Origin: Octopus vulgaris | Lineage: Eukaryota | Assembly: GCA_951406725.2 (NCBI GenBank) | Contig: OX597822.1 | Coordinates: 52,886,001 to 52,950,000, forward strand | Direction of reading: 5' to 3' | DNA: 64,000 bases | Part shown: positions 21,477-62,063 of the stretch, piece by piece | Numbering within the stretch: the stretch's first letter is position 1 | Layout: each line of letters begins with the position of its first letter | Program-made: the position numbers and the translations under genes | The notes under the pieces: generated by a model | What the model was told of the DNA's origin: nothing | Databases searched by the model: none | Seen by the model: the letters and a program-made list of their open reading frames with translations, nothing else

Positions 21477-22516
21477 TATATACGTTTTAAGAAGTTGTAT
21501 ATGGAGTTATAGATAGCAGTGTCATTGATAAAAATAGTGCAGAGGTTATTTGATAATGATTTTTATCGATAGAGCTGTGAAATAGATCTGAGAACCATTC
21601 ACACCCACACACACACACACACACACACACACACACACACACACACACACACACCCACACACACACACACAACACGAGAATAAAGGAAAGGAGACACTAT
21701 ATAATGCAATCAGAAAACTAGAATTAATCTCCAAGACTGACTGTAGATTAATCGCCACTAATAATAACTAACAATGCTGGTTATAAAAACAATATGGTGA
21801 AAAAAATATAAAACAATCATTGTATCACTTCTGGAAGGCTGGTGGTGTTGATCCGAGCAATATATAAATAAGCAATATAAACAACTAATAAATGAATGTG
21901 GCACATACCAAATCTACTGAGTAACTTTGATCAATATATCATCGTTTCATATAGTTGTGATTAACGGTGTCAGCTATAATTATAATTATAATTAACACCG
22001 TCAAAAACAATTATCGTTAACAAAGCAGATACTGCTGTTATTAAAGATTAACAAAACCTGTCGACGGACAGGCAAAAATGATAAATGAAATAGAAGATGT
22101 ATACAAGAGTTGTCATTAGGTTACTGGTTCATTCGAACAGAGTTAAGTCACTTAAAATACACGATTCAAAGGGGAAAGTCAGAGTGCCCTAATCCTCATC
22201 ACCATCATCGCAATCACCACTCTTATCACCAATTATCCTCCGTCACCCACTTACCGCTTTGTGTCTATTAATACACCTATCTTTCTGCCTTTTGCTTATC
22301 TCTCCTTCTATATATATATATATATATATATATATATATATATATATATATATATATGTAGGTCCCGGGTTGATTCGGGGTTAACCACAGTAAGTAAGGT
22401 ACTCAATACATAGCAGAGTAAAATTAATTTATTATATAGAAGGAGCTTCTACAGGACTAGTACTGTTTCATTCAAGAGAAATCTTCAGAAGCAGAGAAAT
22501 CTTCAGAGAAATCTTC

Positions 22517-22550
22517 CTGAAGATTTCTCTTGAATGAAACAGTACTAGTC
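22517..22550 (+). ncRNA. Hammerhead-like core (mirrored on minus strand at 22455-22488); helix I partner missing
   Basis: CTGAAGA-T-TTC-tctt-GAA-T-GAAA-C-agtacta-G-TC, inside a 62-bp-arm palindrome. Confidence 0.5.
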
Positions 22551-22639
22551 CTGTAGAAGCTCCTTCTATATAATAAATATATATATATATATATATATAC
22601 TTACCGCTTTGCATCAATCAATACATCTATCTTTCATAT

Positions 22640-22955
22640 AGAGGGGAGAAACAAGGACAGACAAATCGATTAAGTCGATTACAGCGACCCCAGTGCGTAA
22701 CTGGTACTTAATTTATCGACCCCGAAAGGATGCAAAGGCAAAGTCGACCTCGGCGGAATTTGAACTCAGATCATAACGGCGAGGTCGAATTTGAACTCAG
22801 ATCATAACGCCGAGGTCGATTTTGCCTTTCATCCTTTCGGGGTCGATTAAATAATTACCAGTTATGCATTGGGGTCGATATAATCGACTTAATCCCTTTG
22901 TCTGTCCTTGTGTATCCCCTCTGTGTGTAGCCCCTTGTGGGCAGTAAAGAAAAAG
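22640..22955. mobile_element. SINE family A fold-back pair (minus copy then plus copy)
   Basis: Inverted SINE bodies joined by a tandemly duplicated GAATTTGAACTCAGATCATAACG.CGAGGTCGA segment. Confidence 0.85.
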
Positions 22956-24316
22956 GACACTGAAAGAAGCCTGCCGTATACAGATATATGTGTTTGCGTG
23001 TGTTTAACCCCCCATCACTACTTGACAACTGGTTTTGGTGTGTTTACAACCCCGTAACTTAGCGGTTCGGCATAAGATATTGATGGAACCAGCACTAAGC
23101 TTAATAAATAATTCTTGATGTCGATGTCTTCGACTAAAACTTTTCAAGATGGTGCTTCAGCATGGCTGCTGTCAAATGACTGAAGCAAGTAAAGGAATAA
23201 AAGAACACACACACACATACACACATATATAATGGCATCTAAATATTGGGTTGAAAAGTCCTTTTGCATAGAAAAATTCAAAGGCCACCTTTGACTTTTT
23301 CTACCCTAACGGGTTCCTCTACCCAAAGCCTTGTCAGTGGATTTGGTAGCTTTAAATTACTTCGAAATGCAATTCCAAAAAACGAATTATTTCATGTTCT
23401 TTTGAAAGTTTATAAATTCTTATGATATAAACAATATGTATGTGTGTGTATATTGTTAAAGTTGTGTGTGTTGTGTGTGTGAGTGCTTCTATGTATATAT
23501 TATACATACACACACATGAGCATACAAACATTCCAACATAAATACCTTCAAAGAGTATTGTTCCATTAATGCACGTTATCCATTTGTCCGGTTTACATGA
23601 TTGTCCATCACGTTTTGCTGCACTTCAGTAATTTTTTACTTCATAGAGCCGTCACAGGTTGCCGACATCACTGTCATTGTGTACATTAAAACAGTAGCCG
23701 GCGCAGAATTATTTTTTATCTGCTTTCATACACTTATATACTGTCCGTCCATTAGTGAAAATGTAGTTCAAAGTTTATAATAGTAATCAATTTAAAACAA
23801 AATGTAAAAAGAAAGCGAATATGTCTAACATCGCTTCCGGAAACTGAAATAATATAGCATATGAAAAGAGGCGAAAACCGGAAGGCTTTTGTGCATGAAT
23901 ATATCATAGGCACTGTAGGAAAATATATGACATTAAGTAATATAAGGAAAAGTTAATGCAATTTATGGCCAAATGAAAGGCAAGCAAACATGTTGATTTA
24001 CAGCAGACATTAAAAACATCAGCCTGCTACCGATTACAATGTCGGATGTTTGTGGATATATCTTCATTGTAAAGTCAATTAGTAAAGCACTAGTATCGAT
24101 GATGTGTATGTACTTACATTAATCTATACATAAATATATAAATCCATGAATGCATATAAACATGCATGTACGCATGCGTGCAAACACATATAGACATACA
24201 CATATATATCTTAGAATTTTTGCTTCACCCACTCCCTTCCGGTCATTTGAAAATGTAACCACATGTGAATCGTTGGCTTTTTTCCTCCGTCTTCACTTCT
24301 TTTGGACTTTCTTCTA

Positions 24317-24351
24317 TTTCTGAAGAAGAGTCTTGCTCGAAATGTTAAATC
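24317..24351 (+). ncRNA. Minimal type I hammerhead ribozyme motif
   Basis: ATTT-CTGAAGA-A-GAGT-ctt-GCTC-GAAA-tg-TT-AAAT, in a ~230-bp element (24211-24443) homologous to 42895-43060. Confidence 0.65.
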
Positions 24352-24443
24352 CTCTTTCTTTCCTTTCCCGAACGTCTGATAATACATTATTCGTACCACG
24401 TCCTTGCGTTATTGTTTTTTCATGCTTGTTCTTCTTTGTTTGG

Positions 24444-24593
24444 ATCTATCTATCTATCTATCTATCTATCTATCTATCTATCTATCTATCTATCTATCTA
24501 TCTATCTATCTATCTATCTATCTATCTATCTATCTATCTATCTATCTATCTATCTATCTATCTATCTATCTATCTATCTATCTATCTATCTAT
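24444..24593. repeat. (TCTA)n microsatellite
   Basis: Direct inspection. Confidence 0.99.
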
Positions 24594-60414: not shown

Positions 60415-60690
60415 AGTAGTCTGGGTGGCCCCTGTGCAAGCGTCGCCCCGTTTAACCAACATACAGGGAAGGACAGATAGAGCAGTAGATGACATCGCTT
60501 GAGGTGCAGGTAAAAAAGTCGGTTGTGTGAGAGGGACACTGGTGGGTGCCGGTAAGGGTAGTGGTGTTGGAGAGGTAAGGGCAGGTGCCACAGTGTGGGT
60601 GAGAGATGGGGAAGGAGCCAGGCAAGGTGCCAGGAGTAGAGAAGAAACTGCGGACCAGTAGGTCACGCAGATTATTGGCGCATTTGCACG
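60415..60690 (-). mobile_element. Penelope-like GIY-YIG fragment
   Basis: NNLRDLLVRS..CGTCPY..FTCTSSDVIYC.ICPSLYVG*TGRRL. Confidence 0.8.
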
Positions 60691-60842
60691 CACGCACGTA
60701 TGTATATATATATATATGTATGCATGTGTGTGTGAGTATGTGTGTGGGGGCGGTTTTTGTAAATTGATAGGTGTAGGGAAAGAAGAAGGTAAATCCGAAC
60801 TATATATATATGTGTGTGTATGTGTGTGTGTGTGTGTTTTTC

Positions 60843-61108
60843 TCGCCCTTTTGAAGCCTAACCAGGCTCATGGGCCCGGTTTACCGGTTTCTATGGTGTA
60901 TGTGTTCCCCGCCCCCAGCTGGACGGGACGCCAGTCCATCGCGGCGTTACTCAAGAAACAGGAAGAAAGAGTGAAAAAAAGTTGGGGCCTCGTGGAGCAT
61001 TAGGTGTTTTCGCTCAATAAACACACACAACGCCCGGTCTGGGAATTTAAACTGCGATCCTCCGACCGCGAGTCCGCTGCCATAACCACTGGGCCATTGC
61101 GCCTCCAC
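60843..61108 (-). mobile_element. SINE family B
   Basis: Same head as 10386-10489. Confidence 0.8.
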
Positions 61109-61396
61109 TTATATATATATATATGTATGTATATATATATATATATATATATATATATATATATATATATATATATATATATATATATATGTATATATTT
61201 GTTGAAATAGAAAGATGAATTTTCTTGTTACAGATTATTCAAAAGTTTAACCGATACCTGGGTAGCAAAAATCACAGCAGAAAAAAAAGCACGGTTGGAG
61301 ATAAGACCATTTGGTGTTGCAACCGTGCGTTGGTGCGATAATTGAAGTTTAATATTATTAGCGAATGGAAGAAATGGAGTTGAACGAAGATTGTAC

Positions 61397-61508
61397 AGAA
61401 TTCCTTTTATTACATTCTACACATGTTTCAAAGGCCACAAATTTCCAAATTCTGATTAAATAAGGGTACCATATTGTGGCTTTCTCTTCAGGAAAAAACA
61501 GGAATTCC
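61397..61508 (-). ncRNA. Type I hammerhead ribozyme (mirror arm)
   Basis: Reverse complement of 61533-61644. Confidence 0.72.
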
Positions 61509-61532
61509 GTTGTTTTGTTTTGTTCTGTCAAC

Positions 61533-61644
61533 GGAATTCCTGTTTTTTCCTGAAGAGAAAGCCACAATATGGTACCCTTATTTAATCAGAATTTGGAAAT
61601 TTGTGGCCTTTGAAACATGTGTAGAATGTAATAAAAGGAATTCT
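61533..61644 (+). ncRNA. Type I hammerhead ribozyme with extended helices I and II
   Basis: GAATTCCT..TTC-CTGAAGA-GAAAGCCACAA[loop]TTGTGGCCTTT-GAAA-C-atgt-G-TA-GAA..AGGAATTC; predicted cleavage after 61623. Confidence 0.75.
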
Positions 61645-62063
61645 GTACAATCTTCGTTCAACTCCATTTCTTCCATTCACTTATATATATATATATATAT
61701 ATCATTGCTATTTTGTTAAACTGTCATATGTCCAAATTTGGCCAAATGTGTTTTTTTCAACATTTATTTTTGCTTTCAATAGCCGGTTCTTTTGGTCAAA
61801 CTATCATATCTCCAGCCACTTCAGACACCAAAAGTGTAGTACAACGATTTTGCCATTTTTTCGTTTTCTGGAAAAGCAACGTTTTGGACTTACGACACTT
61901 TTGCATAATAGCAACGAATTATGTTTCCAAGCCAATATGAACATGTGTTACGTGACTCAAAGGTACAACATATATATTCCCTTTACCATTTCTTCCTGTA
62001 TACGAAAATCTTTTCAGGTCACATTACCTTATTACAATATACACGCGCGCTCACACACATTTA

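Follow-up and report, generated by a model that had tools for sequence, protein, structure and literature searches.

Penelope-like elements (PLEs) that carry an endonuclease (EN+ PLEs) have been described with an inverted, 5'-truncated pseudo-long terminal repeat (pLTR) and an optional tail (PMC8557442, Fig. 2; PMC3846280). The minimal hammerhead ribozymes of PLEs, among them a U3–A8 covariant and pairs on opposite strands 100–700 bp apart, were proposed to act as dimers (PMC4209133). The origin of tandem and inverted PLE insertions and of their microsatellite preference was named an open task in PMC8557442, and the sole in vitro system leaves the later steps unvalidated (PMC11167929). Here we analyse a 64,000-nucleotide stretch of the Octopus vulgaris genome (assembly GCA_951406725.2, contig OX597822.1, positions 52,886,001–52,950,000; the whole stretch is called the window), in which hammerhead motifs sit in 3' modules of PLEs and of their non-autonomous derivatives. 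The ribozyme, the (TA)n bias, the inverted 5' copies and the one-sided tail are already published; the added result is a counted pairing rule, by which one outer end of an inverted locus lies at a near site A of the element and the other at a far site B, beyond the tail. The elements themselves are ordinary PLE biology, with one sharp regularity.

The insertions show the features of EN+ PLEs: 5' truncation, an inverted 5' copy, a one-sided tail and a (TA)n target. With published pLTRs (PMC8557442, PMC3846280) they share a tails-out inverted copy, a hammerhead near the 3' end, (TA)n targets, a tail on one of the two inverted pLTRs and cargo capture in trans. The published tail is optional, treated descriptively and 30–40 nt long, whereas tails here span 38–155 nt; the near-strict count of one A and one B end in five families, and families with one end and without inversions, go beyond these descriptions. 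Like the minimal hammerheads of PMC4209133, the window motifs combine a short helix I, a bulge before helix II and a palindromic helix III, and include a U3–A8 covariant and opposite-strand pairs 100–700 bp apart. Unlike them, they comprise U4C cores and a family-wide A6U core (E26), and their ribozyme activity is putative.

The closest biochemical parallel is PAc, a Poseidon protein from Anolis, which cuts and extends both strands of AT-rich DNA in vitro and starts reverse transcription at two RNA sites bracketing the tail; it is a predicted dimer and uses uncleaved RNA, its in vitro transposition being independent of ribozyme cleavage (PMC11167929). The two start sites bracketing the tail, the cutting and extension of both strands, the AT-rich target and the uncleaved RNA are points in common with the octopus elements as read here. 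The available text of that paper does not discuss inverted insertions, nor does the paper pair the two sites within one event. The intact octopus elements possess a CxxC linker, which the clade of PAc lacks according to PMC8557442.

The families fall into two main classes. Members of class 1 (C24, E26 and G43) share a helix III of four bases, a single 3' end and ragged 5' ends at about 190–215 nt, and are kin to the pLTR of the intact element Nep1008 (z of 9–30 against shuffles), to which G43 is about 75% identical. In class 2 (A564, B22, H61 and F27) the helix III palindromes are longer and each family ends at either of two 3' sites, A or B, with A-to-B tails of 83, 70, 155 and 71 nt, respectively. 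A further family, D25, matches the intact element PLE781 weakly (z of about 6) and shares its U3–A8 core. The window had been annotated initially with about six families; we distinguish eight by sequence, or six lineages if the related C24, E26 and G43 are merged. Searches of a 2.8-Gb assembly (227 contigs) returned candidate counts that are lower bounds: at least 1709 for A564, 1075 for H61, 643 for G43, 2712 for F27 and 1752 for E26, and for B22 at least 130–199 with the motif region and at least 1040 with the upstream part. C24 and D25 were compared only with the loci already collected.

Class 2 loci were mapped on a natural copy of each element, overlapping loci were removed and the two outer ends were classed by script. 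Inverted loci whose tails face outwards, one arm ending at A and the other at B, account for 26 of 45 loci in A564, 45 of 59 in B22, 18 of 25 in H61 and 14 of 30 in F27 (core query), 103 in total. They make up 103 of the 104 automatically classified inverted loci. None of these was B/B, and one (L023) was scripted as A/A; by eye its right arm passes A, carries an internal deletion and ends in the tail. Seven further inverted loci have one end at neither site, and four that the script missed (L053, L167, L171, L202), all A/B by eye, stand outside the 103. A separate, structure-selected set of 30 F27 loci contained 27 A/B cases. Junctions are distinct in 72 of the 103 loci, including 26 of 26 in A564; if ends were chosen independently, mixed pairs would be expected in at most half of the loci, which over 72 distinct junctions gives 0.5^72 = 2e-22. 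Single copies ending at A are frequent (A564, 8 of 14; H61, 6 of 7; F27, 5 of 14). The six clean multi-kb B22 inversions are all A/B, a seventh (L443) being nested and left out.

The same pairing holds in the intact autonomous PLE781, where five of five inverted loci are A/B (p = 0.007 at a cautious 75% A); 15 of 16 PLE781 ends without a visible partner are A by eye, three of them running past the sampled flank. In the one-end families, no opposite-strand partner occurred among 40 G43 matches nor among 40 E26 matches, and Nep1008 gave 18 ends in 20 loci, all at one site, with no inverted copy. Thus the near-strict rule of one A and one B end holds in five families (A564, B22, H61, F27 and PLE781), and the same genome holds young intact elements of both kinds, one with a single end and no inversions, the other with two ends and inversions. 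In the literature searched, which lay outside older subscription papers and supplements (including S2 of PMC11167929), we met neither a tally of paired ends nor a model of twin priming for PLEs; the word "ribozyme" is absent from the available text of a recent octopus repeat annotation (PMC13282606).

In the window, the four inverted loci initially annotated are genuine inversions that resolve into five inverted insertions (22358–22577, 26719–26845, 26920–27086, 41811–42845 and 61199–61682). A locus given as 26.7–27.1 kb consists of two insertions, of which 26719–26845 has no catalytic core; of a span given as 40.8–42.8 kb, 40779–41214 reads as a separate single copy; and the last inverted element starts at 61199. 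The elements read as follows.

22358–22490, minus strand: B22 B arm with its core at 22488; continues past site A and across the 70-nt tail as far as site B, which lies on (TA)n.
22491–22511, no strand assigned: B22 junction filler, templated; short repeated copies of core and helix II sequence.
22512–22577, plus strand: B22 A arm; hammerhead C3 at 22517; ends at site A on (TA)n.
24215–24427, plus strand: C24 monomer; minimal hammerhead, C3 at 24320; related to the Nep1008 pLTR; its 3' end lies on (TATC)n.
25650–25892 (5' boundary approximate), plus strand: D25 3' module; hammerhead with U3–A8 core at 25802; weakly similar to the PLE781 3' end.
25905–26094, minus strand: E26 monomer of about 190 nt; its minimal hammerhead has an A6U core (26026); one 3' end, with no inversions observed.
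26719–26845, no strand assigned: F27-family inverted insertion folded at helix III, without catalytic core; left arm ends at A, right arm inside the tail.
26920–27086, plus strand: F27 inverted insertion; reversed tail (B arm) joined in a long helix I to the A arm, C3 at 27019.
40779–41214, minus strand: A564 single 5'-truncated copy; ends at B on (TA)n; hammerhead C3 at 41116.
41811–42426, minus strand: A564 B arm; a complete 564-nt unit and 52 nt from the unit before it; hammerhead C3 at 42147.
42425–42478, plus strand: A564 junction filler, 54 nt, templated; unit positions 334–387.
42479–42845, plus strand: A564 A arm; unit positions 110–482; hammerhead C3 at 42598; ends at A on (TA)n.
42896–43060, minus strand: G43 monomer; 5'-truncated copy of an element of about 215 nt; C3 at 43023; about 75% identical to the Nep1008 pLTR 3' end.
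61199–61512, minus strand: H61 B arm; hammerhead C3 at 61491, followed by site A, a tail of 155 nt and then site B on (TA)n.
61529–61682, plus strand: H61 A arm; hammerhead C3 at 61550; ends at A on (TA)n.

Of the 103 A/B loci, 23 have an A arm that extends further 5' and 19 a B arm that does so; the reach is equal in 47 (42 of these B22), and the B arm consists of the tail only in 14. In L1 twin priming, both target ends prime on the RNA and yield a 5' inversion with microhomology, using the poly(A) end and a variable internal site and leaving non-overlapping arms; here, unlike in L1, both sites are fixed and the arms usually overlap. Junctions in 58 A564, H61 and F27 loci show overlaps of 1–16 nt (31), filler (25) or blunt joins (2). 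Only 4 of 206 arm 5' ends lie within 3 nt of the cleavage site, which points to an uncleaved or religated RNA as the template; cleavage-site templates were rejected as the main route on this count. Arms tend to start at the outer edge of helix I, at its border with the core, in 88 of 90 B22 cases and, with a neutral query, in 17 of 28 F27 cases, with no such trend in A564 or H61. We interpret the B22 clustering as partly selected because both B22 queries had junction-specific first letters, and since a tail-only B22 query returned no genome candidates, B22 5' ends are not sampled free of bias.

On balance we lean towards the view that mirror-image copies form when each of the two cut target strands primes reverse transcription, at its own site on the RNA, and the resulting cDNAs are fused. 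The reverse transcriptase (RT)/GIY-YIG enzyme would cut both target strands in (TA)n, and a dimeric protein would hold one uncleaved RNA. A (TA)n tract reads identically on both strands, so that either cut end presents the same primer; sites A and B each carry short TA-like patches. One cut end would prime at site A, the nearer of the two on the RNA, and its partner at the more distant site B, the two primers perhaps being unable to share one site on the same RNA. The B-primed copy would either stop in the tail or displace the A-primed copy, and host end-joining or template jumps would fuse both cDNA ends. A single primed end would leave an ordinary 5'-truncated copy ending at A or B, and families with a single start site would lack inversions. 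The hammerhead probably travels along as a cis-element, and insertion would not require it to cleave. In its fuller form, which we rate as an even call, a dimeric enzyme initiates twice, of necessity at two distinct sites on the RNA; tail and inverted copy would then belong to a single phenomenon, and the number of start sites would decide whether palindromes arise; in the boldest version, the palindromic helix III may be an RNA-pairing signal rather than a cutter. If twin initiation is true, then with about 100,000 motifs in the genome many thousands of hairpin-forming loci would have been seeded in TA tracts.

Several points weigh against this proposal, which reads a putative mechanism from genomic copies. 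The bulk data of Frangieh et al. show no start-site difference between strands and no RNA–target homology, the latter in contrast to the short TA-like overlaps at the ends here. The sampled loci are the best-scoring, youngest matches and not random draws; 21 of the B22 inverted loci came from a tail-bearing query that forced one B arm, their partner being A in 20 and unclassifiable in one. One true B/B locus (L115) occurs among the 30 structure-selected F27 loci. In 89 of 103 loci the arms overlap, and a single RNA could account for this only with strand displacement, an unproven step. The two arms of a locus differ by 1.8%, compared with 2.75% against other loci (35 comparisons) and 1.7% between tandem neighbours, a gap so small that one RNA and two are not separable. 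Central deletions after insertion could mimic unequal arms; they could blur arm lengths, but not create A/B pairing. Lastly, among the three ORF-bearing elements compared, no autonomous partner or parent ORF was found for A564, B22, F27 or H61.

The overlap would be explained without strand displacement if both target ends were primed on two RNAs held together, perhaps via helix III, in an asymmetric complex whose subunits use A and B, respectively. Nearly every cluster listed has a self-complementary helix III, even though only closing pairs were demanded by the descriptor, helix III palindromes measure at least 6 nt in the inverting families against 4 nt in the non-inverting lineage, and dimers of PLE hammerheads have been proposed (PMC4209133). 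For this variant to exclude A/A and B/B loci some additional asymmetry would be required, the helix III contrast is based on a single non-inverting lineage, and the arms tend to share variants; we consider it unlikely, though the nearest competitor. Self-priming, in which one cDNA folds at a palindrome, copies itself and is later trimmed by central deletions, was proposed in PMC3846280. It accords with the 1–16-nt junction overlaps in 31 of 58 A564, H61 and F27 loci, with the B22 and F27 junctions in hammerhead helices and with the equal 5' reach in 47 of 103 loci, 42 of them B22. However, the common A-primed cDNAs could yield only A/A palindromes by this route, and none was seen; moreover, in 37 of 103 loci the A arm is not copyable from the B arm unless the latter was deleted later. 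The published model is disfavored because A-ended single copies are common and A/A palindromes are absent, and we regard it as distinctly unlikely; the initial description of elements "folded back into palindromes" probably named the wrong mechanism, since the arms end at different sites. The pairing rule thus ties two measured start sites to inverted copies and speaks against self-priming.

Retrozymes offer another comparison. A reading in the line of the initial annotation, with all families as self-cleaving retrozymes copied from cleaved or circular RNAs, is in our judgement very unlikely as a general account. Non-long-terminal-repeat retrozymes, for which a derivation from PLEs has been proposed, are non-coding tandem units each with a type I hammerhead, and A564 resembles them (PMC7229834; bioRxiv 10.64898/2026.07.22.740005). 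It forms at least two consecutive non-coding head-to-tail units of 564 nt, each with a complete, intact type I hammerhead (for example L008, L012, L016 and L025), and is copied across the cleavage site and the unit junction, as fits a circular or multimeric template. Its unit exceeds the 150–450 nt of PMC7229834 but falls within the 51–972 nt of the preprint, whose retrozyme definition fits A564 alone among these families. G43 and E26 are monomers of about 190–215 nt, kin to the pLTR of an autonomous element and without tandem copies among their matches; G43 as a circle-length monomer was dropped, there being no tandem copies among 40 matches. B22 gave one partial tandem (L168). The low number of arm 5' ends at the cleavage site (4 of 206), the A6U core of E26 and long B22 elements of >3 kb also oppose the general retrozyme reading. 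Self-cleavage as the driver is likewise unsupported: few arms start at the cleavage site, E26 was amplified with its A6U core, and PAc has no need of cleavage (PMC11167929). The word "inverted" is absent from the available text of PMC7229834.

Same-site priming followed by endonucleolytic trimming of the tail from one arm, during resolution of an intermediate, would build on a published suggestion for the origin of the tail (PMC8557442) and on earlier work, cited in PMC11167929, in which the tail is needed for endonuclease recognition; the single B/B locus also fits. In vitro, however, RT starts at both tail boundaries (PMC11167929), and about 100 B-anchored arms would each need to have been cut and then resealed exactly at A; we rate trimming as highly improbable. 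That a few palindromic master elements were copied whole, or that the palindromes are fold-backs of sequencing or assembly, is exceedingly improbable. B22 junction types do recur (16 distinct among 45), and no short-read contig spans the palindrome at 61.5 kb in the window, but all 26 A564 junctions differ, and the arms are unequal, 1–3% different and set in unrelated flanking DNA. Short-read contigs of two public runs contained ten other arm-to-arm H61 joints, six of them from inside the tail, with sides of only 20–29 nt; contigs of two other runs contained no H61 joints. The preferred reading remains priming by both cut ends at different sites, and the initial annotation stands as regards PLE-system elements that are mostly non-coding and non-autonomous, with real inversions, but not as regards fold-back, self-cleavage as the driver or a retrozyme identity for all families.

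The initial count of about 12 hammerheads was recovered in full as 12 type I motifs, at the following C3 positions.

Plus strand: 22517, 24320, 25802 (U3–A8 core), 27019 (U4C), 42598, 61550.
Minus strand: 22488, 26026 (A6U core), 41116, 42147, 43023 (U4C), 61491.

Nine of them pass a strict descriptor (type I core CUGANGA, GAAA and UH, with helices I and II), the three variants being 22488 (helix I cut to 2 bp; read by eye), 25802 (U3–A8) and 26026 (A6U). Perfect-core matches number six in the window and none in each of 20 dinucleotide shuffles; relaxed matches number ten, compared with a mean of 1.5 in shuffles, and one of these, at 14928, is probably due to chance. An Rfam search of the window (E up to 1) detected no hammerhead family, only microsatellite-driven miRNA and snoRNA noise, and single-motif folds of nine sequences were no more stable than shuffles (z of −1.65 to +1.56). 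Such unremarkable energies are expected, as the motifs are minimal and proposed to act as dimers (PMC4209133). In 1.9 Mb of collected genomic loci we counted 498 motifs in 38 clusters; of 32 clusters inspected, 31 have a helix III that is a complete or near-complete palindrome, although the descriptor required closing pairs only. In an alignment of eight related motifs, 97% of cells were paired, a value reached by 6 of 500 shuffles, with only one of nine pairs changed on both sides.

Docking at (TA)n is real and polar, the 3' side of the motifs facing the repeat. The window is repeat-rich, with 33 (TA)6+ tracts. In an arbitrary genome sample (40 stretches of 10 kb, 400 kb), 18 motifs were found against 1–3 in five shuffles, or about 45 motifs per Mb; by extrapolation the genome would hold some 100,000, and the window is about three times denser. 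A (TA)6 tract lies within 200 nt downstream of 11 of these 18 motifs and upstream of 2 (background 15%), in agreement with the (TA)n preference initially claimed. The 3' ends adjoin TA repeats in 199 of 206 arms of A/B inverted loci, target-site duplications being masked by the (TA)n target; the wider claim of "(TA)n or related repeats" is borne out for 3' ends on (TA)n, and C24 ends on (TATC)n instead. The arbitrary stretches also yielded motifs from many further families without a representative in the window. Different PLE families are stacked side by side in the same (TA)n tracts (window 25735–27086 and 41811–43060; loci L182, L186, L188 and L197).

Three decayed PLE ORFs, initially reported at 5.7, 58.3 and 60.4 kb as the mobilizing source, are real remnants.

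5361–6900 (boundaries approximate), plus strand: decayed PLE of an old family; RT, CxxC linker and C-terminal GIY-YIG; many stops.
58218–59672, minus strand: decayed PLE ORF from RT to endonuclease; matches intact Nep1008 (E 8e-52).
60344–60706, minus strand: decayed PLE linker/endonuclease fragment; matches Nep1008 (E 3e-16).

They carry stops and frameshifts and are therefore unable now to move copies that are 97–100% identical; intact candidates for this role (Nep1008, PLE781) sit outside the window. Copies in the family of the 5.4–6.9-kb remnant share 70–78% protein identity; its assignment as Naiad was rejected, as relatives carry a C-terminal endonuclease. Nep1008 is young and intact, with a 1008-codon frame containing DKG, RT, CxxC and GIY-YIG motifs, and forms 6.2-kb partial tandems. 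PLE781, also young and intact, has a 781-codon frame with RVT_1 and GIY-YIG, a U3–A8 hammerhead core and a 38-nt hairpin tail (L447:1706-4048 and relatives), and its 3' end has about 1035 genome candidates. Both fit the Neptune/Nematis type (single ORF, DKG motif, RT, CX2-5CxxC linker, C-terminal GIY-YIG), to which we assign them by these predicted features. About 8–15 kb past the window end there is a young copy of Nep1008 whose open frame spans 870 codons (L192/L193, 52.958–52.965 Mb of the same contig). The Nep1008 3' untranslated region is 3 kb long and (CA)-rich (L181:5590-8400), so that microsatellite-like DNA is spread with each copy.

For A564, B22, F27 and H61, pLTR homology to the three ORF-bearing PLEs compared reached z of at most 5; in their behaviour they resemble PLE ends. 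The 160–560-bp non-coding elements initially described are indeed mostly non-coding, but B22, H61, F27 and D25 have longer forms elsewhere (B22 >3 kb), and B22, H61 and F27 have long low-complexity 5' regions. The long B22 elements (L441–L446, L292) exceed 3 kb, are TG/TA-rich and non-coding, and hold a nested inverted A564-like piece in both arms; B22 3' modules thus appear to move upstream cargo. L443:5369-7291 contains an asparagine-rich PLE frame whose CxCX5C linker, together with flanking CxxC/CxH motifs, matches descriptions of the Hydra clade; it has its own hammerhead and is carried inside a long B22 inversion. The A6U change of E26 (window 25905–26094; L331–L360) is family-wide, with 29 such cores counted and 30 loci inspected, despite amplification to more than 1700 candidates.

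Elsewhere in the window, a 754-codon LINE frame with RVT_1 and endonuclease matches occupies 29546–31807, and a LINE fragment forms an inverted pair, 89–94% complementary, around (TA)/(TACA) arrays (43705–44695 and 48131–48796). A Tc1/mariner-like element with 232-nt terminal inverted repeats lies at 7535–9161; what we take to be further mariner-like remnants lie near 3.8–4.7, 18.4–18.9, 20–21.5 and 62.2–62.7 kb, and 28506–28865 (minus strand) is presumably a fragment of a PIF1/Helitron-like helicase. Two arrays, at 37100–37467 and 39892–40375, share a 184-nt period: in one a perfect dimer is bordered by (AAT)n tracts, and in the other the common SINE is repeated in tandem. At 47662–47731, an interstitial place, a hexamer equal to the TTAGGG telomere repeat in a rotated register occurs in about 12 copies.

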